NCBI GenBank assembly: GCA_035644115.1
Contig: DASQPE010000099.1
Coordinates: 319-64,318, forward strand
Reading direction: 5' to 3'
Source of the DNA: Gemmatimonadales bacterium
GTDB taxonomy: Bacteria > Gemmatimonadota > Gemmatimonadetes > Gemmatimonadales > GWC2-71-9
Length of the DNA stretch: 64,000 nucleotides
Shown piece by piece: positions 28,974-61,754 of this stretch. Each line of letters starts with the position of its first letter. Positions within the stretch are counted from its first letter, which is position 1. The translations under genes and the position numbers were made by a program. The notes under the pieces are model-generated. The model saw only the letters and a list, made by a program, of their open reading frames with translations. It searched no databases and was not told the origin of the DNA.

Positions 28974-29196
28974 CGCGCGGGGGGAGATGGGGCGCCAGCT
29001 GCTGCGCATGATCGCGCTGGTGGCGGCGGTTGACGCGGTCGCGATCGCGGCGTGGTTCCTCGCCGGCATCCGCGGCCGGAGCGAGGGCGTGCAGGTGCTG
29101 TATGCGATCGGGTGGACCCTGGCGACGCTGGGGGTGGTGGTTGTCTCTATGCGGAAGATCAGAGACGCCAGAAAAAGCGTGAAAAGTGAAAAATGA
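28966..29196 (+). CDS. small two-helix membrane protein (76 aa)
   Basis: Track ORF with two hydrophobic helices. The last codons (..SVKSEK) and the stop lie inside the left arm of hairpin A. Confidence 0.45.
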   Translation: MADARGEMGRQLLRMIALVAAVDAVAIAAWFLAGIRGRSEGVQVLYAIGWTLATLGVVVVSMRKIRDARKSVKSEK

Positions 29197-29282
29197 AAAG
29201 TGAAAAGGGGCGCCGATCACGCACGGAGCCCCCTTTTCACTGTTCACTGTTCACTTTTCACTTTCACTTTCACTTTTCACGC
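29177..29282. repeat. hairpin A: inverted repeat whose arms are tandem heptamers, (TGAAAAG)x4 versus (CTTTTCA-like)x7
   Basis: Read directly. Positions 29179-29210 pair with 29230-29261 (32 positions, 3 mismatches) around a 19-nt loop. It lies between convergent stop codons at 29196 and 29277. Confidence 0.9.
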
Positions 29283-30071
29283 AGTTTCAGTCTTGGCCCC
29301 CGTGGCGCTGGTGATCGCCGGCGTCTCCCCGGTCGGCTGGTCCACCGCGTCGATTCGCACCACAATGGCCGTGATGTTGTCGAGGCCGCCCCGACGGTTC
29401 GCTTCGGTGATCATCTTGTCCACCCACGCCTGCGGGTCCCCCTCCGACGACAGGATCTTGACCAGCAGCTCGTCTTCCAGCATTCCCGTGAGCCCGTCCG
29501 ACCCCAGCAGCACGATGTCGCCTGTCTTGAGCGAGCCGAAGTAGAGATCCGGCACCACGTCCACGCTGGCCCCGACGCAGCGGGTGATGACGTTGCTGTA
29601 GGGATGGACCCGTGCCTGCTCAGCCGTGAGCAGCCCGGCGTCCACCTGCTCCTGCACGTAGGAATGATCTTTGGTGAGTTGGGTGAAGTAGCCGTCCCGG
29701 AGCAGGTAGGCCCGACTGTCTCCCACCTGGCCGATCAGGTACCGCCCCCGCATGAGCACCAGCACGGTGGCGGTGGTCCCCATACCCCGCTTGTCGTGTT
29801 CGGCCAGCGTGCGCTCGAAGATCGCGTCGTTGGCCTCCCGGATCGAGGCCCGGACCCGCTCGGCAACCTGCTGCTCGGTCAGCCCGCGCAGCGAGCCGAT
29901 CTCGCGCGAGGCGATGCGGACCGCCATCTCACTGGCCACCTCGCCGGCCGCATGCCCGCCCATCCCATCCGCGACGATGAAAATGCCGCGATCGGAGAGC
30001 ATGAGGTAGTTGTCTTCGTTGCCCGACCGGACGACACCTACGTCGGTGCGGGCTGCACAGGTGAAGTGCAC
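29277..30071 (-). CDS. PP2C-family Ser/Thr protein phosphatase
   Basis: Track ORF. RSGNEDN, VADGMGGHAAGEVAS and LLGSDGL motifs. Confidence 0.9.
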   Translation of the reverse strand: MHFTCAARTDVGVVRSGNEDNYLMLSDRGIFIVADGMGGHAAGEVASEMAVRIASREIGSLRGLTEQQVAERVRASIREANDAIFERTLAEHDKRGMGTTATVLVLMRGRYLIGQVGDSRAYLLRDGYFTQLTKDHSYVQEQVDAGLLTAEQARVHPYSNVITRCVGASVDVVPDLYFGSLKTGDIVLLGSDGLTGMLEDELLVKILSSEGDPQAWVDKMITEANRRGGLDNITAIVVRIDAVDQPTGETPAITSATGAKTETA

Positions 30072-30081
30072 GGGGCTCCGT

Positions 30082-31404
30082 TTATTTCAACAGCATGAAC
30101 GCGATGACGCCTGCGACCACGAGAACGGCGGCTACGATCAGCCACCGCGGCAGTCCCTGAGGCTCGGGTGCAGCGGCGCGGACCGGCCTCCGCGGGGAAG
30201 CGGCTTCCCGTTCGGGCGGCGTGCGCAGCCCTTCGACCATGCGGGTTCCCACCCGCTGCTGGATGCCGGTCGTATCATCCGTCGATTCGAACAGCGTCGC
30301 GACCTCGCCGAATCGAATGGTGGCACCGGGTCCGAGCGGAGTCTCCTCCGTGAGTCGCTCGCCGTCCACGAAGGTTCCGTTGGTAGACCCCAGATCGGTC
30401 AACACCCAGATCCCTTCGCGCCGCTGCAGCTTCGCGTGCGACGCGCTCACGCTCGGCTCCGGGATCACCAGGTCGTTGTAGTCGCCCCGGCCGATGTTCA
30501 CCACCGGGTTCCGCACCGTGAGCCGTTTCCCCTTGAGACTGCCACTCCGCACCAGCAGTGACGCAATCGGGGCCTCGACGGCCGTGATCGGCGTGACCGG
30601 CCCCGCCAGCGGTGGGCCGGGCGGACCGCCGAACATGGTGTCGAACAGGCGTTGCTGCGCCCCGGTCGGCGGCGGCTCGGCACCGGTCGCGGCGACCGCG
30701 GGGGCCGGCGGCGGGGTCGGCGCGCTACCGGCTTCGCCGTAGAACCGGAATTCATCCGCGCCGACCCGGATGACATCGGCCCGGTGCAGCACGCGGGAGC
30801 CCTCCACCCGGTGCCCGTTCACGAAGGTGCCGTTGGTGCTGGTGTCCACCAGCACGAAACCCTGCTCCGTCGCGACGATCTGCGCGTGCCGTCGCGACAC
30901 CTCGTTTCCCGGGACCACGACGTCCGCGCTCGCGTCCCGCCCGATGACCACCGCGGCTCCCACCTGGTATTCGCGCCCGTCGGTGAGACACACCAGCCGC
31001 CCACCGGTAACCACGGCCGGTGGCGGCGGCTTGGAGCCGCTGGACGGCGTGAACTTTTCGAAGGCGGACGAATCGAAGAACTTGGTGTGGCCTCCCCGGC
31101 TGGGATCGACCACCAGGAGCTCGTGCGGACCGATCCTGATCTTGTCGCCGTGCAGCACCGGGGTCGGATCGTCGCCCTGCCGAACCCCGTTCACCAGGAT
31201 CTCGGCCCCCGGCGAGCCTCGGCGGATGGCGGCCGATCCGTCCGGCAGCCCCTGCACGACGGCATGACGCGGCTGAACACCCTCCCCGCTGAGGGGCAGA
31301 GCGCAATCGGCGTCGGATCCGACCACCGTTTCGCCGGCGGCGATGGGGTATCGCAAGCCGCCGACTTCAAGTTGCATCATGGAGCCTGGTGCAGGGTGGG
31401 TCAT
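30082..31404 (-). CDS. triple-FHA-domain protein with C-terminal TM anchor
   Basis: Track ORF with three FHA cores: GSDADCALPL...RHAVV; IGRDASADVVV..VSRRHAQI...STNGTFVNG; IGRGDYNDLVI..VSASHAKL..STNGTFVDG. C-terminal helix WLIVAAVLVVAGVIAFMLL. The start could be 31380. Confidence 0.85.
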   Translation of the reverse strand: MTHPAPGSMMQLEVGGLRYPIAAGETVVGSDADCALPLSGEGVQPRHAVVQGLPDGSAAIRRGSPGAEILVNGVRQGDDPTPVLHGDKIRIGPHELLVVDPSRGGHTKFFDSSAFEKFTPSSGSKPPPPAVVTGGRLVCLTDGREYQVGAAVVIGRDASADVVVPGNEVSRRHAQIVATEQGFVLVDTSTNGTFVNGHRVEGSRVLHRADVIRVGADEFRFYGEAGSAPTPPPAPAVAATGAEPPPTGAQQRLFDTMFGGPPGPPLAGPVTPITAVEAPIASLLVRSGSLKGKRLTVRNPVVNIGRGDYNDLVIPEPSVSASHAKLQRREGIWVLTDLGSTNGTFVDGERLTEETPLGPGATIRFGEVATLFESTDDTTGIQQRVGTRMVEGLRTPPEREAASPRRPVRAAAPEPQGLPRWLIVAAVLVVAGVIAFMLLK

Positions 31405-31433
31405 GGAGTGCCAGACAACCTACCCGTGGGGTC

Positions 31434-33257
31434 CTAACCACGCAAGCCAGCGTGGGTTACCGCGCTGGCCGACTCCGGCGGGGCTTGCCCGCGAAGCTGC
31501 AGCTGATAAAGCCGCTCATACAGCCCGTGCTGGGTCAGCAGCTCGCGGTGGCTCCCGCGCTCCCGGATCTCTCCGTGATGCACGACGAGGATCTCGTCGG
31601 CGTGAAGGATCGTGCTCAGTCGATGGGCCACTACCAGGCTCGTTCGGCCGGCCATCAGCTCCTCGATCGCGCGCTGAATCTGCGCTTCCGTCTCTGCGTC
31701 CACCGAACTGGTCGCTTCGTCCAGCACCAGGATTTTGGGGTCGCGCGCCAACGCGCGAGCAAAGCTCAATAGCTGCCGCTCGCCCACGCTCAGGTTCCGC
31801 CCCCGCTCGCCCAGAACGTGGCTATAGCCCTGCGGCAACCGATCGACGAACCGGTCGGCCCCCACTCGCCGCGCCGCCTCGTGCGCCCCCGCCGGGGGGA
31901 TGGGGGCATCCAGCGTGAGATTGTGCAGGATGTCCCCAGTGAAGAGGAAGAGATCCTGTTGTACGAACCCGATGAGTCCCCGAAGTTCAGCCACCGTCAG
32001 CTCGCGGATGTCGACGCCATCGATCGTGATGCGGCCGCGCTGGGGATCATAGAAGCGAAGCAGCAGGCTCACGACGGTGGTCTTCCCGGCGCCGGTGTGC
32101 CCCACCAGCGCCACCGTCTCCCCCGGGCGGGCGGTGAACGACACGTCCTCGAGCACCCACGGACCGCTCTCCGAGTACCGGAACCAGACTCCCTCGAAGG
32201 CGACCTCGCCCCGTACCGGCTCCGGCAGCTGCCGCGGCGCCGTCGCCTCCGGCACCGTGACCGGCTCGTCCAGCAGGCGGAACACCCGCTCCGACGATGC
32301 CATCGCGCCCTGGAGCAGATTGAACTTCTCGGAGAGGTCCTGCAGTGGCTGGAAGAAGCGCCGGGTGAGCTGGATGAATGCCGCCAGGACGCCTACCGTG
32401 AGCGTGCCCCCCAGGGTCCGCAGGCCCCCGTACCAGAGCAGCAACGCGAGCGCGACCGCGGTGAGCACCTCCACCACCGGGAAGAAGATCGCGTAGATCG
32501 TGATCGAGCGCAGATGGGCCTCGAGGTGCTCGGCATTGATCCGTTGGAACTCGCCCGATGCCGCCCGCTCCCGGCTGAACAGCTGCACCACCCGCATCCC
32601 GGACAGGTGCTCCTGGAGGTAGGCGTTGAGCCGCGCCAACCGCACCCGGATGTCTCGAAATGCTTCCCGCACGCTCCGGCGGAATAGCGTCACGGTCAGC
32701 CACACCAGCGGGATGACCGCGAATGCCACCAGCGCAAGCCGCCAGTCGGTGGCCAGCATCAGTACCATGATCGCGCCCAGCGTAAACACGTCGCCGAACA
32801 CGGTCACCACGCCGGAGGAGAACAGCTCGTTCAGGGTCTCGACATCCGAGGTCACCCGGGTCATCAGCCGGCCAACCGGATGGCGATCGAAGTAAGGAAT
32901 GCTCAGCCGTTGGAGGTGGCCGAAGATCTGGAGCCGCAGATCGTACATGACGCGCTGGCCGACGTAGGTCGTGAGCAGGGTCTGGCCGTACTCGAACCCG
33001 AACTCGAGCGCCAGCGCGGCCAGATACAGCACGGCCAGGCTCCCCAGGAGCGCCGTGTCGCGGTGGGGGATGGCGATGTCGAGCGCCCGCTGAGTCAGGA
33101 TCGGGCCCACCAGGGTGAGCCCGGCGCCACCCAGGAGCAGAAGCACTGCGGCGCCGACCGGCAGCCGGTACGGTCGCAGGTAGACTAGCAACCGCTTGAG
33201 CAACCCCGGGTCATACCCCCGGGCGAGCGGTTCTTCGGTCTCGGCGGGCGCAGTCAT
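31434..33257 (-). CDS. ABC transporter permease/ATP-binding protein (MsbA-like exporter)
   Basis: ATG 33257 (MTAPAETEE...) is in frame with track ORF 31434..34529 and overlaps the upstream stop (ATGA). Six-TM ABC_membrane domain, Walker A GHTGAGKTT, signature LSVGERQ and Walker B ILVLDEATS. Confidence 0.9.
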   Translation of the reverse strand: MTAPAETEEPLARGYDPGLLKRLLVYLRPYRLPVGAAVLLLLGGAGLTLVGPILTQRALDIAIPHRDTALLGSLAVLYLAALALEFGFEYGQTLLTTYVGQRVMYDLRLQIFGHLQRLSIPYFDRHPVGRLMTRVTSDVETLNELFSSGVVTVFGDVFTLGAIMVLMLATDWRLALVAFAVIPLVWLTVTLFRRSVREAFRDIRVRLARLNAYLQEHLSGMRVVQLFSRERAASGEFQRINAEHLEAHLRSITIYAIFFPVVEVLTAVALALLLWYGGLRTLGGTLTVGVLAAFIQLTRRFFQPLQDLSEKFNLLQGAMASSERVFRLLDEPVTVPEATAPRQLPEPVRGEVAFEGVWFRYSESGPWVLEDVSFTARPGETVALVGHTGAGKTTVVSLLLRFYDPQRGRITIDGVDIRELTVAELRGLIGFVQQDLFLFTGDILHNLTLDAPIPPAGAHEAARRVGADRFVDRLPQGYSHVLGERGRNLSVGERQLLSFARALARDPKILVLDEATSSVDAETEAQIQRAIEELMAGRTSLVVAHRLSTILHADEILVVHHGEIRERGSHRELLTQHGLYERLYQLQLRGQAPPESASAVTHAGLRG

Positions 33258-34330: not shown

Positions 34331-34413
34331 TGGCCGGGAAAGATAGGGGGGAGACGGGAGCGGACGGGAGCGGGCCGGAGCAGGGACCGCCCGCCCCGTT
34401 ATTTTCCCTGCAC

Positions 34414-38318: not shown

Positions 38319-39746
38319 CTACGGCTCTCGCGTTGCGTGAGCCGCGTCACGAACTAACCGCCAAGCGTCCTCCACCTGCGCCCGCTCGGTACAGCGTTGG
38401 CCGATCGCGAGCCGGATGGCGTACTGGCCGCCCAACGTCGTGTGGGTCAGAAAGACCCGGCCGCTGGCGTTGACCCGCGCAAGCAGCTCACGGTTCAGCT
38501 GCGTGAGCCGCGGATCATCCGCCGAGACCGCTGGTGGACGGTAACGGAAGCAGACCAGGCCGAGCGGGGCCGGCGCCATCAGCTCGAACCCCGGCGTCGC
38601 CTCGATCCATCCCGCCAGCTCCTGGCCCAGCCCCACGTGTCGCCGGAGCATTGCCCGCAGCCCGTCGACGCCGTAGCTCCGGATCACGAACCAGAGCTTG
38701 AGCGCGCGAAATCGCCGGCCCAGCTGGATGCCCCAGTCGCGGAAGTTGACGACGTCGGAGTCGTGAGCGGTCCGGAGATACTCCGGCGTGATGGTGAACG
38801 TCCGAAGCAGTGTGGCCACGTCGCGCACGAAATAGGCGCTGCAGTCGAAGTTGACCAGCAGCCACTTGTGCGGATTGAACACCAGGCTGTCCGCCTGTTC
38901 CACGCCGTCCAGGATCCACCGTAGCTCCGGCAGGATGGCCGCCGACCCCGCCCAGGCCGCGTCCACGTGGAGCCAGGCGCCGTGCCGGCGGCAGAGTTTT
39001 GCGATCGCCGGGACTGGGTCGATCGCCGTGGACGACGTAGTGCCGACCGTGGCGACCACACACGCAGGCACCAGCCCCGCCGCCGCATCGCGGGCCATCG
39101 CGTCCTCCAGCAGGTCGGCTCGAAGCACATAACGCTCGTCCACCGGGATCGATCGCAGGGCCTCTGCACCGTAGCCGGCCAGCTTGACCCCCTTGAGCAC
39201 CGACGAATGCGCCTCCGCCGACGCGTACACCCGGAGTCGCTGGCCCGACTCGGCACCCAGCCGCTCGCCCGCGAAGCCGCTGGCCCGCTCCCGGGCTGAC
39301 AGCAGCGCGACCAGCGTCGCCGTCGATGCGGTGTCCTGGATGACCCCGGTAAATCCCTCCGGCAGCGCGAGCATCTGCGCCAGCCACGCCATGGTCACCT
39401 GTTCCAGCTCGGTGGCCGCCGGCGACGTCTGCCAGGACATGCATTGAGCGGCCAGGGTCGCGGTGAGCATTTCCGCCAGAATCGACGGCGGGCTGTTGTT
39501 CGCCGCGAAGTAGGCGAACCAGCCGGGATGGCTCCAGTGGCTCATGCCCGGCACGATCAGCTGCTCGAAATCGGCGACGATGCGTTCGAACGGCTCGCCC
39601 TCGTCCGGCGGCCCCGGCGGAAGCGAGCGCCGGACGTCGCCCGGCTTCACCTCGGGCACGATCCGCCGCCCGCCGACGTCGCGGAGATAGTCGGCCATCC
39701 AGTCCACGAGCCTATGCCCGTGGGCGCGGAATTCTTCGGGAGTCAT
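38319..39746 (-). CDS. group II PLP-dependent decarboxylase (aromatic-L-amino-acid decarboxylase-like)
   Basis: Track ORF of 475 aa. HWSHPGWFAYFAANNSPPSILAEML, TSTATLVAL, and the PLP-lysine motif FNPHKWLLVNFDCS. Confidence 0.9.
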   Translation of the reverse strand: MTPEEFRAHGHRLVDWMADYLRDVGGRRIVPEVKPGDVRRSLPPGPPDEGEPFERIVADFEQLIVPGMSHWSHPGWFAYFAANNSPPSILAEMLTATLAAQCMSWQTSPAATELEQVTMAWLAQMLALPEGFTGVIQDTASTATLVALLSARERASGFAGERLGAESGQRLRVYASAEAHSSVLKGVKLAGYGAEALRSIPVDERYVLRADLLEDAMARDAAAGLVPACVVATVGTTSSTAIDPVPAIAKLCRRHGAWLHVDAAWAGSAAILPELRWILDGVEQADSLVFNPHKWLLVNFDCSAYFVRDVATLLRTFTITPEYLRTAHDSDVVNFRDWGIQLGRRFRALKLWFVIRSYGVDGLRAMLRRHVGLGQELAGWIEATPGFELMAPAPLGLVCFRYRPPAVSADDPRLTQLNRELLARVNASGRVFLTHTTLGGQYAIRLAIGQRCTERAQVEDAWRLVRDAAHATREP

Positions 39747-39779
39747 GGAACGGGAAGATAAGACGGCGGGAAGAACAGC

Positions 39780-39863
39780 GTGAACGGTAAACGGTGAACG
39801 GTGAACGGGGGAATCCGACGGTCAGCAGACGTCCCTGTTTACTGTTTACTGTTGACTGTTTAC
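39780..39863 (+). repeat. hairpin B: (TGAACGG/TAAACGG)x4 - 22-nt loop - (TGTTTAC/TGTTGAC)x4
   Basis: Read directly. Positions 39780-39810 pair with 39833-39863 over 31 positions: 23 Watson-Crick, 7 G:T and 1 mismatch. The G:T positions pair only in plus-strand RNA. Confidence 0.9.
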
Positions 39864-39893
39864 CGTTGGGTCTTTCTGGGGACTCGGGACGCT

Positions 39894-40547
39894 GTGAAAG
39901 CCACCACGACGGCGCGGCGGGACGGGCTGTGTTTTGACCCCCTCGAAGCCGTGCGCTACCTCGTCGCCGCGGACTCCCGCCTCCGCGGGATCGTCGAAGG
40001 CTCGGGGCCGTTCGACTTTCGACCGGAGCGGACCCAGAGCCTGTTCGCCGCGCTGCTCGAGGCCATCGTGTACCAGCAGCTGACCGGCAAGGCGGCGGAG
40101 ACGATTCTCGGCCGCGTCCTCGCCCTGTTCAGGCCGCGTCGCTACCCAACACCCAACGACCTCCTGCTTCTGCCCGAAGCTCGCCTCCGCTCGGCCGGCC
40201 TGTCGCGGAACAAGACTCTGGCCCTCCAGGACCTCGCCCGCCGCGTGCTCGACGGCACGGTTCCGTCCCTCGCGGCCGCGCGCCGGATGAGCGACGAGGA
40301 GCTGATACAGCGGCTCACGGCGGTGCGCGGGGTCGGTCGGTGGACGGTCGAGATGCTGCTGATCTTCCGGCTGGGCCGCGCCGACGTGCTGCCGGTCAGC
40401 GATCTCGGCATACGCAAGGGGTTCCAGAAAACGTTCGGCATGCGCCGGCTGCCGGCTGCCGTCACCATGACCCGTCGGGCCGAGCGCTGGCGTCCGTACC
40501 GCAGCGTGGCGAGCTGGTTTCTTTGGCGGGCGGCGGAGCTGGACTAG
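39894..40547 (+). CDS. DNA-3-methyladenine glycosylase II family (AlkA-like, HhH-GPD)
   Basis: GTG 39894 is in frame with track ORF 39801..40547; the track start lies inside hairpin B. HhH-GPD pattern LRSAGLSRNKTLALQDLA...VRGVGRWTVEMLLIF...PVSDLGIRKG. Confidence 0.8.
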   Translation: MKATTTARRDGLCFDPLEAVRYLVAADSRLRGIVEGSGPFDFRPERTQSLFAALLEAIVYQQLTGKAAETILGRVLALFRPRRYPTPNDLLLLPEARLRSAGLSRNKTLALQDLARRVLDGTVPSLAAARRMSDEELIQRLTAVRGVGRWTVEMLLIFRLGRADVLPVSDLGIRKGFQKTFGMRRLPAAVTMTRRAERWRPYRSVASWFLWRAAELD

Positions 40548-40548
40548 G

Positions 40549-42597
40549 CTAGCCCGGGCTGGCTAGGAGTCGCCGCGCCTGCGCGATCGCGTCGTGGCTC
40601 CCCGACAACGCCAGAAGATCGCCCTCCAGCAGTAAGGTCTCTGCCGTCGGCAACACGATGGCCTCGTCGCCCCCCCGCGAGAGCGCCACCGCGGTGGCGC
40701 CGGTCCGCCCCCGCAGGTTCAGCTCGGCCAGGGTCGCGCCCGCCGCCGCGCTCCCCGCGTCCACCCGCACCGCGACGAGTGTCCCCAGGCCGGGCAGCAG
40801 ATGCTGGACCTGCTCCAACGTTTCCGACTCGGCGCCCCGGTGCCTGGGACCCAACGCCTCCGCCATCATCTCCGCACCAGCCCGCATGTGCCCCTGGAGA
40901 TTGGTCGCGGTCCGCCAGAATACCATGCCCAGTACGGCCAGGGCCACCACCACCAGGATGGCCCCCTGATACAGGGGCAGGAACGGTTGGGTCACGGCCA
41001 CCAGCGGTATTCCTACCATCAACACGACCGCGATCTGCAGCACCACCACAAAGGCCCGTCTCGGAGCGTCCGCCGGGTCCATCTTGCTGGTGCCCCGGCT
41101 CGGCAGCGCCAGATCGGCAAGCGCGTTGCCCAGTCGGCGCGACGACCGGACCATCCCGACGGCAAACGGCGCCGCGCACACGGCAGCCCCGGCCACGACC
41201 ACCCAGCGCGCCGACCCCTCGGCCATCCCCGCCCGTTCCTGCAGCGTGTCGAGCAGGCGGGGGAGGTTGACCGACGCCCCGATGATGATGCCCCCCAGCA
41301 GCGCCGCGTCCACCGCCACGAACTGCACCGCGCGCCGGATCGGCGTCCAGGGTGTGCTCCGGCCCGGTGCGCCGCGCAGCAGCTCGATCCAGGACCCGTA
41401 GAGGGTGGCAAACGTTTGGAGCGGCCGGGGCAGCCGGCGATCAACGTAGAGCGCCAGCGGCTCGGAGGCGCGGACCAGCCAGGGGCTGGCGAACGCCGTG
41501 ACCACCGATACCGCCGCCGCGACGTGCGGCAGCGCGGCGGCCGATCCCCCTAGGCCGGCGCCGATACCGGCGATGATGAACGCGAACTCCCCTGTGTGGG
41601 CTACGCTCATGCCGGCCCGAACGCTCAGTCGCGTGCCGTGGCCGGTGAGAAACGCCCCGGCGCTCACGCCCACGATCTTGCCGACGATCAGCACGGTCAC
41701 CAGCGCCGCAATGAGCCGCCAGTTCGCCGCGGCGATGGCCGGATCGAGCAGCATGCCCACCGCGACGAAGAAGATCGCGCCGAACATGTCCCGCAGCGGC
41801 CGCACCAGCTGCTCGACCGTTCGGCCCGCCCCCGACTCGTATACCAGGGAGCCTGCGAGAAACGCCCCCAGCGCAACCGAGTACCCGGCCGAGCGGGCGA
41901 GCAGGGCGGCTGCGAAGCAGAGGCCCACGCTCGCCACCAGCGTCGTTTCGGGGCGGCGGAGCCGGGCCACTGCGCGCATCGAAGGCGGCACGACCAGCAG
42001 GCCCAGCGCGAGTGCACCGGCGAGGAAGGCGAGCAAGCGGGCACCGGTGCGTGCGAGATCCGCGCCTGTCAACCCGCCGCCGGAAGCCAGGGCCGTCGCC
42101 ACGGCGATGAGTAGAATCGCCGCCACGTCCTCGAACACGGTGATCGAAAGCACCAGCTCCCGGAGCGGTCCCTCGACCCGGACATCGCCGAGCACGCTTG
42201 CCGCGATCATGGTGCTCGACACCGCTACCACCGCCCCCGCCAGCACGCTTGCCTCCGGGCTCCAGCCGAACAGCCGGCCGACCAGGGTGCCCGACGCCAG
42301 GAGCAGACCCACCTCGAGCAGCACGACCAGCGCTACCCGTGGGCCCATCCGGATGAGGCGCCGGAGACTGAACTCGAGCCCAATCGAGAACATGAGCAAC
42401 ACCACGCCGAGCTCGGCGAGCGTTCGCACCGTCCCGACGTCCGCGACCAGCGGCAGCGGCACGTGCGGGCCGACCACCAGGCCGGCGACGATATAGCCGG
42501 GAACGGCGGGCAGATGAAGTCGCTGGAACCCCACGGACGTCACGGCCGCGACACACAAGACGAGCGCCAGGTCCGTCAGGAAGGCTTGGGCGTCCAT
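40549..42597 (-). CDS. cation:proton antiporter (CPA2/Kef-type) with C-terminal TrkA-C (RCK_C) domain
   Basis: Track ORF of 682 aa. Na+/H+ exchanger TM domain (GYIVAGLVVGP...LMFSIGLEFS) and a C-terminal RCK_C-like segment (LAELNLRGRTGATAVALSRGGDEAIVLP). Confidence 0.85.
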   Translation of the reverse strand: MDAQAFLTDLALVLCVAAVTSVGFQRLHLPAVPGYIVAGLVVGPHVPLPLVADVGTVRTLAELGVVLLMFSIGLEFSLRRLIRMGPRVALVVLLEVGLLLASGTLVGRLFGWSPEASVLAGAVVAVSSTMIAASVLGDVRVEGPLRELVLSITVFEDVAAILLIAVATALASGGGLTGADLARTGARLLAFLAGALALGLLVVPPSMRAVARLRRPETTLVASVGLCFAAALLARSAGYSVALGAFLAGSLVYESGAGRTVEQLVRPLRDMFGAIFFVAVGMLLDPAIAAANWRLIAALVTVLIVGKIVGVSAGAFLTGHGTRLSVRAGMSVAHTGEFAFIIAGIGAGLGGSAAALPHVAAAVSVVTAFASPWLVRASEPLALYVDRRLPRPLQTFATLYGSWIELLRGAPGRSTPWTPIRRAVQFVAVDAALLGGIIIGASVNLPRLLDTLQERAGMAEGSARWVVVAGAAVCAAPFAVGMVRSSRRLGNALADLALPSRGTSKMDPADAPRRAFVVVLQIAVVLMVGIPLVAVTQPFLPLYQGAILVVVALAVLGMVFWRTATNLQGHMRAGAEMMAEALGPRHRGAESETLEQVQHLLPGLGTLVAVRVDAGSAAAGATLAELNLRGRTGATAVALSRGGDEAIVLPTAETLLLEGDLLALSGSHDAIAQARRLLASPG

Positions 42598-43552: not shown

Positions 43553-43558
43553 CCGCGC

Positions 43559-45091: not shown

Positions 45092-45232
45092 GCGAGCGTC
45101 CCGCTCCGGCCGAAAGACCAGGGGTTGATTCGAGTCAGCCGTGAGCAGCCGGCCGGTTCACTGCTCACGAATTGGCGTGGCGACGGATGGAGCGGGAGGG
45201 GGTGCCGATGGTGCTGACCTGCTGCCTCCGAG

Positions 45233-45305
45233 CTCCCGAGGAGGGATTCGAACCCCCGACCCGCTGATTAACAGTCAGCTGCTCTACCAACTGAGCTACT
45301 CGGGA
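45233..45305 (-). tRNA. tRNA-Asn (anticodon GTT)
   Basis: Folded by hand. Acceptor TCCCGAG/CTCGGGA, D arm GCTC-AGTTGGTA-GAGC, anticodon arm GCTGA-CTGTTAA-TCAGC, T arm GGGGG-TTCGAAT-CCCTC. 73 nt, CCA not encoded. Confidence 0.9.
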
Positions 45306-52844: not shown

Positions 52845-52903
52845 CGAACCTCCTGTTATCGCGCTGGATCGAAAGGTAATCGCCGCTCGATGCCAAACCG
52901 AGC

Positions 52904-55211: not shown

Positions 55212-55960
55212 TGCCGGCTGGTTTCCCATACAGGAGGGCAGCGATGAGGTCAGCAACCCGTAGGAAACCCGCGCAGCGGGAGCGCACGGAGCGCCTGGTG
55301 TGGCGCGGCGCCCTGCTCGTGGCCGGAGCGCTCGCGGTCGGCGCTCTGGGCGGGTGGACCAAACGGGTCCGGGCGGCGGATCACAAGTCCGGGCTCGACC
55401 CGGGCCGGCTGGCACGTCAATTCGGCTCGCTCAGCGACGAAGTAGCCGCGGCACGAGGGGAGACCGCACTGGTGCGGGTCCAGCTCGACCGCGCCAACAA
55501 GGTCATGGACTATTCGGTCAAGTACCAGATCCCCGCGGATCTCGCCGCGGCTGTGTACGACATCGCCCTGAGCGAGGGCATCGATCCGTCGCTCGGGTTT
55601 CGCCTGGTCAAGATCGAGAGCGATTTCAAGCAGGGCGCCCATAGCCCGGCCGACGCACTGGGGTACACTCAGCTCCAGCTCCCGACGGCACGCTTCTACG
55701 ACCCGGGCATCACGGAGCAGAAGCTCCTCCAGCGCGACGTCAATCTCCGAATCGGGTTCCGGTTCCTGAAGGACCTGCTGGGGCAGTTCAACAACGACAT
55801 GCACCTCGCCCTGCTGGCGTACAATCGCGGCCCCGGAAAGGTGGCCGAGATCCTCGCCCAGGGTGGCGATCCGAAGAACGGTTACTCGGAGGCTGTGCTC
55901 AAGGGATACCGCCCGCCGAGAACCGTGGCGGGCGATGTCGCGGGGAGTAACTGGCGCTAG
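55208..55960 (+). CDS. lytic transglycosylase (SLT domain), membrane-anchored
   Basis: Track [27 protein letters not shown]...[12 protein letters not shown]. The start may be 55211 or 55244. Confidence 0.8.
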
Positions 55961-57693
55961 GCGGGAATTTTCAGGCGCAGGCCACGCTTCAGCGTGGCAT
56001 CGTTCGATAATCCGTTCGCAGCTTTCAGGGCCTGGACCGAGACACCATATCGTCTCGCCAGGCCCGCGAGCGTTTCCCCCGGCCGCACGACGTGGCTTCG
56101 GGCGGCGGCCTGCTCAGCGGCTGTCCGCGACCCGCTCGCCTTCGATGCGGTCCGGACGCTGGGCTCCGGCGGCGCGACTCGAATCCGCTGGCCGGCCCGC
56201 ACGCGAGTGGCCTTGCCCAGGCGGTTCCAGACCTGCAGCTGGTGCTGGGTGACGCCGTAGCGGCCGGCGATGAGTCGCAGGTTCTCACCCCGGCGCACCC
56301 GATGGAAATCGGCATCGGAGGGCGCCGCCGCGAGCTGTCGGGTGACCTCGGCCGGCAGCGGACCAAGGGTCGGGACGACGACGATCTGCCCGGCTCGCAG
56401 GCTTCGCCCGCGCAGGCGGGGGTTCGCGGCGATGATGTCGGCTTTGGCGACGCCGTAGCGCTTGGCCAGGCCGCCCAGGGTCTCGCCCGCACGAACCGCG
56501 TGTTCCCGGTAGCTCATCCGCTTGCTGGCAGGCAGCTCGGCATAGGCGAGCGCCGTCGTCTCGCCGCGTCCGGGTGGCAGCCGCACCAGACTCGGGGTGC
56601 CCGGCGGGGTCGTGAGTCTGAGATACTGGGGATTCAGCTCGCGGAGCGCCGCCACCGTTGTATCCGCCAGCCGCGCGATCACGTCGAGCCCGGTCTGGTC
56701 CGCCACTACGATCGAGTCGTAGGGCGTGGCCACTTCCGGCGAAGGCGGAGGGAAGCCGTACTTGAGCGGCTCCTTCGCGATCATTGCGGCCGCGATGAGC
56801 TTCGGGACGTAATCCTTGGTTTCCCGCCGGAGCAACTTCGTGTCGTAGAGCCGGAAGAACGTGGCATCCGAGGGGATCGTGTCGGTCTCGTCGTCAGGCA
56901 GGCGGTGGAGCCCGCGGGAAACCCGGCCGGCTCCGGCGTTGTAGGCCGCGGCGGCGAGATAGTACGAGCCGAACATCCCGGTCAAATCCTTGAGGTGCCG
57001 AGCGGCTGCGTCGGTCGCTTTCATCGGATCCCGTCGCTCGTCCACCCAGCGGTCGACTCGCAGGTGATACAGCAGCGCGGTGCCCTTCATGAACTGCCAC
57101 ATTCCGACCGCGCGGGCGCGGCTGGTGGCTGTGTTCGAGAACCCGCTTTCGATCAGCGCGAGATAGACCAGATCGCCCGGCAACCCTTCGGCCTGGAGCC
57201 GCCGCCGGATCATCGCCTCATAGCGCGGCATCCGCTCGAGCCAGATGCCGAGGCGCTCCCGCCCCGTCGTGCGGAAGAAGTCGAGGTAGTACTGCACCCG
57301 GTCGTGGTTGTTGAACCGCTCGATTTCGATGTCGAACGTTACGGGGGCAGTGCCCAGCGCTTTGGAGCCATCGGCACTAACGGGCGCTTCTTCGCCGGCG
57401 GGTTCTTCGCGATCGGGCGTTTCGGTATGGAGATCGGCCAGCTTGTCGAGGATGTCCTCGTCCGCGGCCGAGTCCGCCGCGATGCGAAGCTCTTCCAGCA
57501 GCTCCCGGTCGAGCACTGAATCCGCAACCGGAGCGGGAACGAGGTCGGGCTCTGGAATGGCTTGGGCTACGGTGGGTGCCGCCGCCGCGCTCGGCGCGGC
57601 CACGGCAGGGCCGGGTTCCGGGGGTGGCGCCGTATGACCGGCGCAGGCCGCGAGAACGAGCAGGGACAGGACCGACAGTCGGTGCATGAACAC
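55957..57693 (-). CDS. LysM-domain lytic transglycosylase (MltD-like)
   Basis: Track ORF of 578 aa. SLT core LALIESGFSNTATSRARAVGMWQF followed by three LysM repeats (e.g. HVVRPGETLAGLARRYGVSVQALKAANGL). Confidence 0.9.
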   Translation of the reverse strand: MFMHRLSVLSLLVLAACAGHTAPPPEPGPAVAAPSAAAAPTVAQAIPEPDLVPAPVADSVLDRELLEELRIAADSAADEDILDKLADLHTETPDREEPAGEEAPVSADGSKALGTAPVTFDIEIERFNNHDRVQYYLDFFRTTGRERLGIWLERMPRYEAMIRRRLQAEGLPGDLVYLALIESGFSNTATSRARAVGMWQFMKGTALLYHLRVDRWVDERRDPMKATDAAARHLKDLTGMFGSYYLAAAAYNAGAGRVSRGLHRLPDDETDTIPSDATFFRLYDTKLLRRETKDYVPKLIAAAMIAKEPLKYGFPPPSPEVATPYDSIVVADQTGLDVIARLADTTVAALRELNPQYLRLTTPPGTPSLVRLPPGRGETTALAYAELPASKRMSYREHAVRAGETLGGLAKRYGVAKADIIAANPRLRGRSLRAGQIVVVPTLGPLPAEVTRQLAAAPSDADFHRVRRGENLRLIAGRYGVTQHQLQVWNRLGKATRVRAGQRIRVAPPEPSVRTASKASGSRTAAEQAAARSHVVRPGETLAGLARRYGVSVQALKAANGLSNDATLKRGLRLKIPA

Positions 57694-57870
57694 ACTCCCT
57701 CGCGCGCCGGGAACGCCGGCCGCCGGTTCGGCAACAAAATCTTACGAGCGCACTAGCCGGTCGTCCACCGAGCCCCGGTGTGCTTCGGCATTTGTTCGCC
57801 AACGGACCCGCCCAGGGACGCGGCAATCCGCGGATTCAAGCCGCGATTTGACAGGGGTTGGGGCTTCCGC

Positions 57871-58491
57871 CTACCGCATGAACAACCGGTTGCCCAGCAT
57901 TCGGTTGGTGGCGTTCAAGACCGCCAAAGCGGCGCCCCGGGCTGGATCTGAGTCCGTAAGGTACGACCCCACTACACGTTGAGCCCCCTGCTCTCCGTTC
58001 GTTGCCAGCGACACGATCACCACCGTCGCATCGAACGCTCGGACCGCTTTGACTCCGAGGAGCTCGAATGTCATGGCGCCCGCCACCGCCTGGCCCAGTG
58101 CGTTGACGCAGGCCTGGGCGGCACAGCGAAGCTCGCCGGCCTGGGACGCCAGACCCTCGCACTGTCCCGCGAACTGCTCCGAGCCCCGCCAGGTCAGCCC
58201 GACCCGCGCCCGGCAGCGCCCGTTCGAGAGGCGGTCGAGCACAAACTCCGCAAACCGGAGCCGCTCATGCGCGGCCACCGGTTCGGACGAAGCTTCCGAG
58301 GCCTTGTCCGAGGTACCGAAGGAGCTGTCAGTAGGGGTCGTACCGCCTCCGCGATCGGCGCGCCGCAGCCCAACAAAAGAGCCCACGCGATGGGGAGTGG
58401 CAAGCCCTATGCCACCCAGCCCCTTAGGCTCGCTGCCCCGGTCAAGAATCCCTGAAGCGCGACGGCCACCCCGGAGGGGGTGGCCGTTCAC
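57871..58491 (-). CDS. hypothetical protein (conserved-looking C-terminal alpha/beta domain)
   Basis: Track ORF. The C-terminal about 130 aa (FAEFVLDRL...ELRCAAQACVNALGQA...VVIVSLA...AALAVLNATNRML) looks like a folded domain that I cannot name. The N-terminal extension and start are uncertain. Confidence 0.45.
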   Translation of the reverse strand: MNGHPLRGGRRASGILDRGSEPKGLGGIGLATPHRVGSFVGLRRADRGGGTTPTDSSFGTSDKASEASSEPVAAHERLRFAEFVLDRLSNGRCRARVGLTWRGSEQFAGQCEGLASQAGELRCAAQACVNALGQAVAGAMTFELLGVKAVRAFDATVVIVSLATNGEQGAQRVVGSYLTDSDPARGAALAVLNATNRMLGNRLFMR

Positions 58492-58509
58492 GGCTCCGGC
58501 AGAGCGGGG

Positions 58510-59430
58510 TCAGTCTTCGACGACGATCAGGAACTTGGAAGGCGCCCAGAACTCCTCGGGCGATTCAATCTGGAGCGCGCCATGGATCTTGCCGTCCTTG
58601 GTAACCGAGTTGGCGGCCAGATATTCCGGGCTCTGACGCGAGATGATCTTGTAATTCTTGTTGTCGTGCGGCAGCGGGATCGTCAGGTCATGGGTCTTGT
58701 CGATCCGGTTAAAAGACGCCGGGTCGAGATTACGTGCCGGCACCAGGTGGGTGCCACCGAAGAACAGGAACTTGGAGCCTTCCTTGGCGAGCACGCCCTT
58801 CTCCATCAGCTCCTTCTTGGTCCCCACGGCGTAGTACACCGTGTTCTTGTAGGTGGTGAGCTGCGAGACCGTGTCGGTAAGCGCCACCTTGGCGACTGTG
58901 AGCTGCTGGTTTTCGGCGCTGACCGTATCGACTTTGCTGTTGAGCGAGGCGATCTCGACCTTCTGCTGTTCGATGGTGGCGGTGTACTCCTGCTCCTGCC
59001 GCTCGGCGGCCGCCTTGAGATCTGCGACCGTCTGCTTGGCCGACTCCAACTGGGCGAGGAGCCGCTGGTTCCGGCTGCTGGACCGCTTGAGCCGCGTGGT
59101 CGCTGCGTCCAGCTTCTGTTCGCTCTCGTTCAGTCGGCCGATCACTTCCTTGATCTTGCCCAGGACAGCGACCCGGTCCTGAGTCGCTCCCGAGGCGGTC
59201 TTTTCGCTGGCCGGCACCGGGGCGACCCCGACGCTCTTGACCTGCGCCAGCTCGGCATTGAGATCGTTGACGAACTTCGTGGTCTCGAGGACTTCGTTCA
59301 GCAGGCTGTCCTTCTCCGCGGCAGTCTGCTTCGCCTCGGCCAGCGCCGCGTTGAGCTTCTCACGATCGGCGCAACCTGTAGAGCCAGCGGCGAGAGCGAC
59401 CGGCAGAAGAAGCCAAGCGAACCTCCGCAT
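58510..59430 (-). CDS. coiled-coil lipoprotein
   Basis: Track ORF with lipobox LAAGSTGC. About 170 aa of heptad-rich sequence, then a beta-rich C-terminal domain (NTVYYAVGTKKELMEKGVL...). Visibly less GC-rich than its neighbours. Confidence 0.7.
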   Translation of the reverse strand: MRRFAWLLLPVALAAGSTGCADREKLNAALAEAKQTAAEKDSLLNEVLETTKFVNDLNAELAQVKSVGVAPVPASEKTASGATQDRVAVLGKIKEVIGRLNESEQKLDAATTRLKRSSSRNQRLLAQLESAKQTVADLKAAAERQEQEYTATIEQQKVEIASLNSKVDTVSAENQQLTVAKVALTDTVSQLTTYKNTVYYAVGTKKELMEKGVLAKEGSKFLFFGGTHLVPARNLDPASFNRIDKTHDLTIPLPHDNKNYKIISRQSPEYLAANSVTKDGKIHGALQIESPEEFWAPSKFLIVVED

Positions 59431-59674
59431 ACGACCCCCTTCAGATCAGAACGGATGGACACGTCTGCGACCCTGCGCGACGATCGCAGCTAACCCCAAC
59501 GCAGGCCGCACCCAACTGGGGCGGTCCCTCTTGATTCGCGATTCTCGTATCGACAACAAGTGGAAGTTTACCTGCGACATGGGGGAAAGGCCAGAGACCG
59601 CAGTCAAGTCGAAGCCGAGTCGGCAGTTGCCAGCGCCCTCGCGCAAGCAATCCGCCAGCAGTTACCTTAGCCAG

Positions 59675-59747
59675 TGAGGGCGGTGGGAATCGAACCCACG
59701 ACCTAGGGATTAAAAGTCCCTTGCTCTACCAATTGAGCTACGCCCTC
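59675..59747 (-). tRNA. tRNA-Lys (anticodon TTT)
   Basis: Folded by hand. Acceptor GAGGGCG/CGCCCTC, D arm GCTC-AATTGGTA-GAGC, anticodon arm AGGGA-CTTTTAA-TCCCT, T arm GTGGG-TTCGATT-CCCAC. 73 nt, CCA not encoded. Confidence 0.9.
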
Positions 59748-59804
59748 GGCTCCCCAAACGTGACCGGACCCCACCGGAAACTCAAGAGAGCATTTGAGCG
59801 CACT

Positions 59805-60197
59805 ATGCGACTCGGCATCCCCTTGTGGCTGGTCATGCTGCTGCCGGCCGTGCCGTGCGCCGGCCAGGCGGGACATGACTCCGATCGTTGGCAGATCACG
59901 CTGGGCGAAGGACAGGTGCTCTGGGACGTGCGCCTGGTGAAGCTGGCGGGCGACTCGCTCCAGGTCCGGCGAGCCGACTCGCTCACCGTCGTGCCCGTTG
60001 CGAAGATCACCGAGCTCAGGTTGATCAGGAAATCGGAGATCCAGCCGGGCAATCCCACCGCCGGCACAATGGCCGCCCTCATGGGCAGCGACGACGAGGT
60101 GTATGATCTCACCCCGCTCGAGTTCCCCGATCGGCTCCGGGCGGTGCAGAAGATCTTCCTTTACCATCCGCCGGACTCCACCGCGGCCGGCCCGTGA
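59805..60197 (+). CDS. secreted hypothetical protein (130 aa)
   Basis: ATG 59805 is in frame with track ORF 59721..60197; the track start lies inside the tRNA. Signal peptide MRLGIPLWLVMLLPAVPCAGQ. Confidence 0.5.
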   Translation: MRLGIPLWLVMLLPAVPCAGQAGHDSDRWQITLGEGQVLWDVRLVKLAGDSLQVRRADSLTVVPVAKITELRLIRKSEIQPGNPTAGTMAALMGSDDEVYDLTPLEFPDRLRAVQKIFLYHPPDSTAAGP

Positions 60198-60236
60198 ACC
60201 GCCGACGGGAGGTCAATAACCGCTAGCTTCCAGGCC

Positions 60237-60905
60237 ATGCCCCGACCACCCACGGTTCTCATTACCGGCACCGATACCGGCGTCGGCAAGACCTGGGTGG
60301 CTTGCGCGCTGGCCGGCGCGCTGCGGCGCGCCGGCCGCGCGGTCGCCGCGGTGAAGCCGGTGGAGACGGGGTACGGCGATGAGGCTGCGCCAATGGAGGA
60401 CGGGGCCCGGCTTGCCGGGGCTACCGGGCAACGGGAACCGACCCGGGCGCTGCGTCGGTTCCGCGCCCCGGTCGCTCCGGCGCTGGCCGCGGAGCTCGAG
60501 GGCGGCGCCATCGACCTCGACGATCTCGCGGCCGAGATCGAATCACTCACGGGGCATGCGGATCTACTGCTGCTAGAGGGCACCGGCGGTCTGCTGGTGC
60601 CCTTCGGTTGGGACTGGACTGTGGTGGACCTGGCTCAGGTGTTCGAAGCCACGGCGCTCGTAGTGGCGAGCGATCGGCTCGACGGCATCAATCACACCTT
60701 GCTCACCCTCGGGGCGCTCGACTTCGCGGGCTTGCGAGTCGCCGGGGTCCTGCTCAACACCCCGCCCCGACCCGACGCGACGACCGGGTCGAACGCGGCG
60801 GCCATCGCGCGCCTGTCCGGCATCGATCGGGTCCGCTCGATACCCCGCGTGCACGACCCCAATGAAGCGAGCCCCTGGCTGGCGGAGGTTTCAGGATGGC
60901 TGTGA
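60237..60905 (+). CDS. bioD: dethiobiotin synthase
   Basis: Track ORF. ITGTDTGVGKT P-loop, KPVETG, EGTGGLLVP. Confidence 0.85.
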   Translation: MPRPPTVLITGTDTGVGKTWVACALAGALRRAGRAVAAVKPVETGYGDEAAPMEDGARLAGATGQREPTRALRRFRAPVAPALAAELEGGAIDLDDLAAEIESLTGHADLLLLEGTGGLLVPFGWDWTVVDLAQVFEATALVVASDRLDGINHTLLTLGALDFAGLRVAGVLLNTPPRPDATTGSNAAAIARLSGIDRVRSIPRVHDPNEASPWLAEVSGWL

Positions 60906-61657
60906 GATGGATCGGGCTCGCGGTGCTGCTCAGCTCGGGGCCCGCCACCGCCCAGGCCCCGAAGACCATCACGTTCCCTTCGACCGACAGCTTGCCAATC
61001 ACCGCCGACGTCTATGCGCCGTTGCCACCGTCGGCGCCGTTCATCGTCCTGTTCCATCGGGCGGGGGCGAGCCGCGGCGAGTATCGGCAGATCGCGCCCC
61101 GGCTGGTCGCGATGGGCTTCAACTGTATGGCGGTGGACCAGCGGTCCGGCGATGCCGTGAACGGCGTCCCCAACCAGACCGCCCGCGAGGCCAAGCATAG
61201 CCCTCAACCGGTGTCGATGATCTCCGCCCGGCAGGATCTCGAGGCCTCGCTCCGATACGCCCGGGCACATTACGCGCGCGGCAAGTTGCTGGCGTGGGGC
61301 AGCTCCTACTCCGCGGCGCTCGTGCTGGTGGTGGCAGGAGAGGATCGGGGCCTGGTCGACGGCGTGCTTGCTTTCTCGCCCGGAGAATATTTCCCCGTAG
61401 CGCCGGGCCGGCCGACCCTCGTGACCGATGCCGCGCGAGCGATTCGGGTGCCCGTGTTCATCACGTCGGCCCGTTCCGAGTCGAATGACTGGCAGCCCAT
61501 TTTCGCCGCGCTGGCGCCGTCGCTGCGGCGGGCGTACGTCCCCGACGCGGAAGGGCGCCATGGCTCCGGCGCTCTCTGGAAAGAGGCGCCGGGTCAGGAA
61601 GGTTACTGGCAGGCCGTGCGGGGCTTCTTGAACCTTCGCTTTCCGCGGACCAAGTAA
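60896..61657 (+). CDS. secreted alpha/beta hydrolase (dienelactone-hydrolase-like)
   Basis: Track ORF with signal LLSSGPATAQA. Nucleophile-elbow-like GSSYS. Overlaps bioD by 10 nt. Confidence 0.7.
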   Translation: MAVRWIGLAVLLSSGPATAQAPKTITFPSTDSLPITADVYAPLPPSAPFIVLFHRAGASRGEYRQIAPRLVAMGFNCMAVDQRSGDAVNGVPNQTAREAKHSPQPVSMISARQDLEASLRYARAHYARGKLLAWGSSYSAALVLVVAGEDRGLVDGVLAFSPGEYFPVAPGRPTLVTDAARAIRVPVFITSARSESNDWQPIFAALAPSLRRAYVPDAEGRHGSGALWKEAPGQEGYWQAVRGFLNLRFPRTK

Positions 61658-61658
61658 A

Positions 61659-61754
61659 CTGCGAACCACGGAAGCACGGAAGCACGGAGCCACAGAAAAA
61701 ACACATCGAAGGCATTTCTTCCGTGGCTCCGTGGCTTTCAGTTGTGGTTTTCAG
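61659..61754 (+). repeat. hairpin C: (CACGGAAG-like)x4 - loop - (GTGGCTCC-like)x4-5
   Basis: Read directly. 61683-61693 pairs with 61723-61733 (11 perfect bp). 61694-61698 pairs with 61715-61719. The outer stem 61659-61671 with 61742-61754 has 13 positions, 1 mismatch and 3 G:T. It fills the whole gap between two convergent stop codons. Confidence 0.85.

Follow-up and report, generated by a model that had tools for sequence, protein, structure and literature searches.

The DNA considered here is a stretch of 64 kb (the window, with a GC content of ~68%) from contig DASQPE010000099.1 of a bacterium of the Gemmatimonadales, the order in which its proteins also place it, and our subject is three long hairpins within it, designated H1, H2 and H3, whose arms are composed of short tandem repeats. 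These hairpins had been proposed in a preliminary description made by reading the sequence, and repeat finding, an inverted-repeat scan and folding agree that they are real. Tandem Repeats Finder locates period-7 arrays in both arms of H1 (29179-29207, 4.1 copies of GTGAAAA, and 29233-29280, 7.1 copies of CTTTTCA) and of H2 (39780-39808, 4.1 copies of GTGAACG, and 39835-39867, 4.7 copies of CTGTTTA), and period-8 arrays in H3 (61663-61688, 3.2 copies of GAAGCACG, and 61720-61736, 2.1 copies). Some of the copy numbers first given need amending. The right arm of H1, described as seven units facing four, does consist of seven, including two 6-mers (TTTCAC). In H3 the right arm, described as four to five units facing four, holds only ~2 8-nt units and a 13-nt near-duplication that runs into the flank.

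The arms of the three hairpins are among the longest inverted repeats of the window (I1, 32 nt, 91%; I5, 26 nt, 81%; I7, 24 nt, 83%). Both strands were folded as RNA, as had been proposed, and the predicted energies for the plus and minus strands are -50.5 and -55.5 kcal/mol for H1, -59.0 and -28.1 kcal/mol for H2, and -45.0 and -54.5 kcal/mol for H3. Five of the six strand folds have z-scores of -4.6 to -6.7, with 0 of 200 shuffles equally stable; only the minus strand of H2 departs from this (z = -1.5), since the stable fold of H2 on the plus strand only (-59 versus -28 kcal/mol) depends on G-U pairs. When a GC-corrected fold of 120 nt is slid along the whole window, the three most extreme values fall at these sites (z of -5.6, -4.9 and -4.7; the next is -3.7). 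A search for the pattern GTGAAMRGTGAAMR with up to two mismatches gives 16 matches in the window where 1.5 are expected, and 13 of these 16 are inside H1 and H2. As had been remarked before, the stems are much longer than a minimal terminator and the arrays are not CRISPR: their units of 7-8 nt stand head to tail, in place of 24-48 nt repeats with unique spacers of similar size. Rfam 15 at the gathering threshold finds only two tRNAs in the window and leaves the hairpins unmatched, and permissive Rfam searches return only sub-threshold matches to generic long hairpins, mostly models of eukaryotic microRNA precursors.

H1 (29170-29288, no strand) is delimited by repeat and inverted-repeat scans, folding, alignment and the orthologous sites of relatives L205 and L206, and belongs to the GTGAAAA subfamily of what we call the GTGAA family. 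It comprises an A-tract (AGAAAAAGC), a left arm of four heptads (29179-29206), a core (GGGGCGCCGATCACGCACGGAGCCCC, 29207-29233), a right arm of seven units (29234-29280) and GCAGTTTC. Two convergent genes meet on it. To the left, a small membrane-protein-like open reading frame (ORF; 28966-29196, plus strand) has its last codons and its TGA stop (29194-29196) inside the left arm, and a gene of 69-75 aa is called at this position in L205 and L206. To the right, a PP2C phosphatase gene (29277-30071, minus strand) stops at the TGA (plus-strand positions 29277-29279) of the outermost right-arm heptad. The ancestral TAA of this gene has become GAA in the window and the reading frame runs on for three codons to the heptad TGA (window 29277-29288 versus L205 1587-1600), so that the protein has 264 aa, compared with 261 aa in nearly all homologues.

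The flanks of the H1 site are conserved across the window, L205 and L206, and the element between them varies. L205 has four units in each arm (GTGAACG/CGTTCAC), L206 also has four and four (GTGAACA/TGTTCAC, with one TTTTCAC unit), and the window copy is a 7/4 form built of GTGAAAA/TTTTCAC. In other relatives the 3′ end of the PP2C gene carries a plain GC hairpin (L033, L036, L043, L080), a T-tailed terminator of canonical form (L003), a hairpin whose tandem arms have another unit (L028) or nothing, and most relatives are without any tandem-arm element at this site. Such swapping of hairpin types is the pattern expected if these structures are interchangeable. As a separate observation, the hairpin at 1139-1232 of L152, with the heptad AGGTGAG/GTGAGAG, has a core (GGGGCGCTGCCGACGCACGGAGCC) close to that of H1, which suggests that unit families may diverge from one another through point change and homogenisation.

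H2 (39770-39876, no strand) was delimited by the same scans, folding, alignment and orthologues, and belongs to the GTGAACG subfamily of the GTGAA family. Its parts are GAAGAACAGC, a left arm of four heptads (39780-39807), a core (GGGGAATCCGACGGTCAGCAGACGTCCC, 39808-39835), a right arm of four heptads (39836-39863) and CGTTGGGTCTTTC. It takes up most of the 147-nt spacer between two divergent genes, a PLP-dependent decarboxylase of the aromatic amino acid type (38319-39746, minus strand) and an HhH-GPD DNA glycosylase (39894-40547, plus strand; its GTG start at 39894 matches the 221-aa gene called in L081 and L082). The same site has two units in each arm in L081 and L082, where the decarboxylase is 93% identical, at least two and three units in L083, and four and four in L037, as in the window. 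Compared with its orthologues (L081 1548-1610, L083 1-70, L037 9884-9986), both core and whole-element alignments of H2 score better in the opposite orientation. The window copy is thus probably flipped relative to the decarboxylase gene, which suggests either a flip of the palindrome or an independent re-insertion at the same site.

The alignment of orthologous intergenic sites, which had been called for, therefore finds the H1 and H2 sites occupied in relatives, with both unit changes and copy-number variation. While copies stay at their site, an arm can gain, lose and homogenise its units, and the opposite arm changes with it.

H3 has a different history. This hairpin of the CACGGAGR family (61667-61739, no strand, 72-73 nt) was delimited by repeat scans, folding, the empty site in L209 and its relatives in L128 and L151. 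It consists of (CACGGAAG)2 CACGGAG, an A-run and loop, and then TTCCGTGG CTCCGTGG CTTTC. The spacer that holds it (61655-61755, no strand) lies between two genes that converge on it, one for a hydrolase (TAA stop at 61655-61657) and one for PAP2 (stop at 61751-61753). In L209 the hydrolase is 99% identical to that of the window, and the nucleotides are 98.4% identical up to 61666 and 97.8% identical from 61739. Exactly the 72-73 nt of H3 are absent, leaving a clean gap in which ACTGCGAAC is followed directly by AGTTGTGG. The outgroups L210 and L211 are likewise empty, with just 6-12 nt between the two genes, and the empty state is therefore ancestral. At the junctions of the filled site at most 1 nt is repeated, with no target-site duplication, and the pre-existing flanks ACTGCGAAC and AGTTGTGGTTTTCAGT now form an outer stem around H3. 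The 8-nt unit of H3 is found in other contexts in L128 (8641-8708) and L151 (5536-5600). H3 is a recent block insertion without target-site duplication.

H1 and H2 are members of one dispersed family. H1 and H2, each on the plus strand, align end to end with each other and with the copies in L037 and L081, sharing the outer AGCG...CACGC, the G-run, a second unit in the variant form GTAAAC and a similar core. When metagenomes were scanned for GTGAAMRGTGAAMRGGGG, >120 stretches matched, a lower bound. Among the matches listed there are 58 two-armed members of the GTGAA family, each in different flanks, from Gemmatimonadales metagenome-assembled genomes and high-GC contigs, mostly with 63-71% GC. 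Their consensus is AAMAGC-(GTRAACR)~4-GGGG(CTCCG)-variable loop-(CGGAG)CCCC-(YGTTYAC)~4-GCKKTT, in which the unit positions GT.AA are invariant, the arms are conserved and the central loop ranges from ~12 nt to >50 nt. Four is the modal number of units in both arms, being the count in 37 of the 58 left and 27 of the 58 right ones among these matches. Two copies are present in the 64-kb window, and two each in L120, L155 and L197. The flank ends AAMAGC and GCKKTT are family-wide, not locus-specific, and they are inverted, not direct. We considered whether GTGAA elements insert into pre-existing palindromes particular to each locus. This was rejected: flank complementarity with an element's own partner is 4.5 of 12, compared with 4.2 with another element's, and the flanks therefore belong to the element consensus.

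These results do not agree with the preliminary description on three points. It had stated that the unit differs at each locus and that the hairpins are not copies of one REP/MITE consensus (REP, repetitive extragenic palindromic sequence; MITE, miniature inverted-repeat transposable element), and had offered, as one of two inferences, a process that builds hairpins by arm-wise expansion of units. H1 and H2 share one family over their whole length and are paralogous, with the 58 listed two-armed copies in different contexts, and H3 has relatives with its own 8-nt unit. As four units are the mode of the family, the four-unit layout is mostly inherited from its consensus and did not arise separately at each locus.

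The model behind those statements, that each hairpin was built in place by slippage of a locus-specific unit and compensatory expansion of the other arm with no copying between loci, deserves to be weighed fully, as some of its ingredients do occur. In-situ change is seen at the H2 site (two units per arm versus four) and at the H1 site (unit variants, and 4/4 versus the 7/4 form). The arrays of L038 are extremely asymmetric (11 versus 3.9 and 6.1 versus 15.7 copies), the unit AGCTAAG of L028 contains the local stop codon, and unpaired tandem arrays of 7-9 nt are common in these genomes. Arm-wise expansion with compensatory change of the other arm is thus a real process, but one that acts on an inherited element after its insertion and is not its origin. 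Among the matches listed, 58 unrelated loci have the same units, core, flanks and position-specific variants, the modal four units are a property of the family, and H3 arrived as one block of 72-73 nt in otherwise 98% identical sequence, which contradicts local expansion as its source. An origin in place is already contradicted for H1, H2 and H3, and we regard the model as a whole as very improbable.

Base pairing between the arms is maintained across the family. In an alignment of the inner three heptads and the G/C runs of 37 copies, 94.7% of arm cells are paired, compared with 90.8% in shuffles, and cells changed on both sides number 45, compared with 18.8; none of 500 shuffles reaches either observed value. 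The double-sided changes are from C-G to A-U at unit position 6 and from A-U to G-C at position 7, and part of their excess reflects subfamily structure. The family is dispersed in many genomic contexts with its arm complementarity maintained. A different use of the same regularity would be as a row of sites to which a protein binds by recognising the 7-8 nt period in DNA or RNA, in the manner of the nucleoid or gyrase sites of bacterial interspersed mosaic elements or of HutP and TRAP, the hairpin being secondary. The regular periodicity and the conserved mode of four units would suit such a protein, and the invariant GT.AA positions could be its contacts. What is conserved, however, is the complementarity of the arms, and no single sequence-specific binder fits because many unrelated units share the architecture within one lineage. 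We consider this explanation improbable. An operator for a transcription factor of the LexA type, brought to mind by the GAAC/GTTC motifs and the neighbouring DNA glycosylase, was also rejected, given that 43 of 45 copies lie at gene 3′ ends beside unrelated genes.

That last count comes from tabulating positions relative to gene ends, a check that had been recommended: 43 of the 45 classifiable GTGAA-family members touch a gene 3′ end. Their junctions are co-directional in 26 cases, convergent in 17 and divergent in 2, against a background of 378, 169 and 127 in the same contigs. H1 and H3 are between convergent genes and H2 is an exception to the downstream placement. Genes also end within the elements. 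Of 69 genes whose 3′ end points towards an element, 37 have their stop within an arm, at offsets of +1, +8 and +15 that correspond to the TGA or TAA of heptads 1, 2 and 3. Each GTGAA-family heptad holds a TGA or TAA, and because 7 is coprime to 3, three heptads supply a stop in all frames, whichever side is read from. The idea that stop codons are common to all tandem-arm hairpins was considered and rejected, as inspection by eye showed one in only about half of the remaining unit families when read inwards.

The ends of the elements resemble those of intrinsic terminators. Of 54 copies, 20 are followed by a T-tract and 20 are preceded by an A-tract, where the background is 1.8% (~20-fold lower), and 32 have a tract at one end or both; H1 carries AGAAAAAGC upstream and GCAGTTTC downstream. 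The elements are oriented at random with respect to the upstream gene (13 versus 10). A strand-specific RNA signal had been a candidate explanation for the plus-strand-only fold of H2. With random orientation in the family, and with G.T and A.C mismatches both occurring (34 versus 21), the fold asymmetry of H2 is therefore not read as such a signal. A canonical promoter scan of the window found no promoter-like sites.

Could these simply be ordinary intrinsic terminators that have come to look alike through convergent selection, with no mobility? They are placed after genes, they have A- and T-tracts, and they are interchangeable in position with the plain hairpins of relatives. On the other hand, the common loop and core sequence and the asymmetric unit variants point to shared descent, the block insertion of H3 favours copying, H2 lies between divergent genes, and stems of at least 30 pairs go far past what termination needs. 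Convergence of this kind strikes us as highly unlikely.

The explanation that we lean towards, with moderate confidence, is that H1, H2 and H3 are mobile palindromes of ~70-120 nt, non-coding and similar to REPINs or MITEs, which are common in the Gemmatimonadales of soil and probably act as portable bidirectional terminators. Both the termination activity and a mobilising enzyme are inferred. Under this explanation gene 3′ ends would tolerate the elements and probably benefit from them, as each brings the complete layout of a bidirectional intrinsic terminator: an A-tract, a long GC-clamped stem and a T-tract. More speculatively, long arms might leave the core hairpin free to form even with a ribosome halted within the element or directly ahead of it; in a published reporter study, a terminator set a few bases past a stop codon was found to be repressed by the ribosome (PMC4824070). 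The lack of target duplication points to a single-strand transposase of the HUH type, as for REPINs and the derivatives of IS200/IS605, or to templated repair.

A good part of this evidence can be accommodated by purely selfish palindromes of the same REPIN/MITE-like kind that serve the host in no way and sit at gene 3′ ends since insertion is least harmful there, helped by their built-in stops. H3 is a strain-level presence/absence polymorphism at ~98% nucleotide identity, the PP2C site is without such an element in most relatives, H2 is in a divergent promoter region and orientation relative to the upstream gene is random, all of which a selfish element would explain. Its own A- and T-tracts and GC-clamped core, however, amount to the exact layout of a bidirectional terminator, compensatory change maintains the base pairing, and the H1 and H2 sites stay occupied in relatives whose flanking proteins are 86-95% identical. 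We therefore think a wholly selfish nature rather unlikely, and return to mobile palindromes that also terminate transcription as the preferred explanation.

Several observations weigh against that preference. H2 sits between divergent genes, where no terminator is needed, and copies can thus persist also in such places. In families other than GTGAA, divergent sites are not depleted (6 of 21). A consensus terminator scan calls neither H1 nor H2, and canonical terminator-like sites in the window are at or below shuffle expectation, showing no excess. The gene contexts come from a crude gene caller and tiling based on GC at third codon positions, and the 58-member set was found with one sequence pattern, which biases its inner heptads. 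As for the enzyme, a tblastn search with Escherichia coli RayT against the window and 2.1 Mb of genome fragments gave no match below E = 2, a weak test with a small sample. The ORFs between paired copies (L155, L197, L185, L120, L151), where a transposase was looked for, appear housekeeping-like, judged by eye on translations and not checked against a family library.

The three hairpins are non-random and part of a lineage-wide class. That they belong to a recurrent class was one of the original proposals, and it is borne out. The refuting condition named for it, a lack of both further instances and conservation, does not hold, as many more instances were found and relatives have elements at the H1 and H2 sites. 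The 2.1 Mb of fetched DNA, made up of fragments of many genomes, holds 98 tandem-arm hairpins, ~36 of which have units other than the GTGAA type. These include AGGTGAG, CGCTATC, GTTAGCC, TAGGGAGC, AGGCGGTA, CGGAACGG and AGCTAAG, several of them at more than one locus. A comparison that is unbiased regarding hairpins is provided by loci fetched around decarboxylase orthologues. In 719 kb of these from Gemmatimonadales, 24 short-period arrays have a complementary partner arm, forming about a dozen hairpins, and in 554 kb from other phyla there are 4 such arrays and 3 hairpins.

The breadth of unit families invites a bolder reading, which we put forward only tentatively. Gemmatimonadales, and possibly other phyla, may carry an undescribed class of mobile, portable bidirectional terminators whose architecture is generated and renewed by a specific process. 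Each would have a central GC hairpin and about four units of 7-8 nt per arm; slippage would alter the arms and hairpin-templated symmetrisation would restore their match. New unit families would continually arise from existing terminators and spread by an HUH-type or template-switch single-strand mechanism without target duplication. The heptad period would itself be functional, giving stops in three frames from both sides and a terminator core buffered from ribosomes, so that genes could pack against, or end inside, the element. Among the papers searched, none was found to describe such elements in Gemmatimonadota.

Among known systems the nearest are REPINs, doublets of REP sequences that form hairpins and are mobilised by RAYT transposases (Bertels & Rainey 2011, PMC3116915). 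REPINs and the present elements are both non-coding, extragenic and 70-110 nt long; their inverted ends are conserved, the spacer less so, and a long hairpin is predicted. In both, compensatory changes are common, contexts are many and target-site duplication is absent. They differ in that a REP is an imperfect palindrome with a conserved 5′ tetranucleotide (GTAG-type), whereas each arm here is built of tandem 7-8 nt units without self-complementarity, and palindromic sequence is confined to the element centre. REPINs also have many copies scattered through one genome and a cognate single-copy RAYT (Y1/HUH) gene that REPs usually flank. The elements here also overlap stop codons, carry A- and T-tract ends and belong to the phylum Gemmatimonadota.

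A second parallel is the GGGAATC heptamer of Xanthomonas, present as 70-75 pairs per genome in convergent inverted orientation, with one array per strand and the capacity to form a stem-loop (Rehm et al. 2015, PMC4692102). The mean distance of those pairs from the end of the upstream ORF is 28 nt, few occur between divergent genes, and their gene associations are not conserved between species (PMC4692102). Intergenic tandem heptamers, most often four units, inverted pairing and a position just after ORFs are common to both systems. In Xanthomonas, however, a single G-rich unit is used genome-wide and is read as a G-quadruplex former, whereas several unit families coexist here, and the central GC hairpin, the A/T-tract ends and mobility are not described there. 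The units GTGAAAA, GTGAACG and CACGGAAG are without G3 tracts and cannot form G-quadruplexes; the only G-run is a single GGGG at the loop base.

Direct repeats of the heptamer TAACTGA are found in Beggiatoaceae and cyanobacteria, and their three-frame stops were noted for Beggiatoa (MacGregor 2015, PMC4679880). Three tandemly repeated heptanucleotides of Calothrix PCC7601 are among the cases cited by Rehm et al. 2015 (PMC4692102). Such arrays resemble ours in their period of 7, stop codons in three frames, overlap with ORF ends by a few units at most and suspected mobility. They differ in being direct, mostly upstream of start codons and free of any hairpin, with an inverted pair in one of 170 sets. 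The Calothrix heptanucleotide repeats are the cyanobacterial short tandemly repeated repetitive (STRR) sequences.

Bidirectional Rho-independent terminators share with the elements an A-tract, a GC-rich stem-loop, a T-tract and a place between convergent or co-directional genes, but the stems here have at least 30 pairs, the sequences form a dispersed family that is present or absent between strains, and one copy (H2) lies between divergent genes. MITEs and palindrome-associated transposable elements (PATEs) are also small, non-autonomous intergenic repeats, some of which affect transcription or supply gene ends. Examples of MITEs are the Correia elements, also called Neisseria miniature insertion sequences (NEMIS), and the enterobacterial repetitive intergenic consensus (ERIC) elements. 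Classical MITEs have terminal inverted repeats and a target-site duplication; the comparison of filled and empty H3 sites has no duplication, and the elements are therefore not classical MITEs. PATEs, which derive from IS200/IS605, are likewise without duplication, and no IS200/IS605 partner is known for the elements here.

If the favoured explanation is correct, an understudied and abundant soil phylum carries mobile families whose copies bring along a complete two-way transcription stop and, with it, stop codons for all frames. This would help to explain termination in high-GC genomes whose canonical terminators are no commoner than chance, as well as the remodelling of gene ends, e.g. the PP2C gene that ends on an element-supplied stop. 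In the elements, the growth of palindromes and the upkeep of their symmetry could be studied in a natural setting. For annotation, they account for odd C-terminal extensions, and for assembly they are likely breakpoints. Older reports of inverted heptamers, such as those from Xanthomonas, gain a testable interpretation.

On the matter of assembly, several contigs start or end inside an element copy (L083, at its position 1, L134, L137, L155 and L161), and the repeats appear to break short-read assemblies. A short hairpin in the window at 45138-45168 (CGTGAGCAG-CCGGCCGGTTCA-CTGCTCACG), just downstream of a tRNA gene (45233-45305, minus strand), has a minus-strand arm, GTGAGCAGTGAAC, that resembles one or two units of the GTGAA/GTGAG families.

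Contig L115 (OBLI01000395.1, 50% GC) has three long tandem-arm hairpins within 1.6 kb, at 6967-7151, 7753-7913 and 8416-8575, with the units AAAATC, ATCCGTGAG and TAGTCAT. As this is a mid-GC contig, the architecture is therefore not confined to Gemmatimonadales. Short-period arrays are about twice as dense in Gemmatimonadales as in the outgroup loci (128 in 719 kb versus 53 in 554 kb).

A few further observations concern the neighbourhood of H2. Unpaired tandem arrays of 6-9 nt occupy the H2-equivalent site (within the 260 nt upstream of the decarboxylase gene) in L006, L010, L013, L014 and L036, e.g. (GGGAAGGAC)4 and (CCCGCCCAT)5. In the Gemmatimonadales metagenome-assembled genome L038 the decarboxylase has a tandem-arm hairpin on each side (1052-1176 and 2559-2727); the two differ in their units, and their arms are very unequal, AGGTCGC with 11 copies versus 3.9 and GAGCTGC with 6.1 copies versus AGCTCAT with 15.7. 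The glycosylase gene (plus strand) and a Na+/H+ exchanger gene (minus strand) converge at 40547-40549 with a single base between their stops and no hairpin. On the other side, AAGATA at 39755-39760 (plus strand) reads TATCTT on the minus strand, 8 nt upstream of the decarboxylase ATG, and H2 starts 9 nt beyond this box. A (T)ATCTT box 6-9 nt before the decarboxylase start is conserved in L001-L005, L021, L030, L035-L038, L081 and L083, in which the proteins are only 64-93% identical. The decarboxylase start that bears the TATCTT box has no Shine-Dalgarno-like sequence, and the box looks like the -10 element of a leaderless mRNA.

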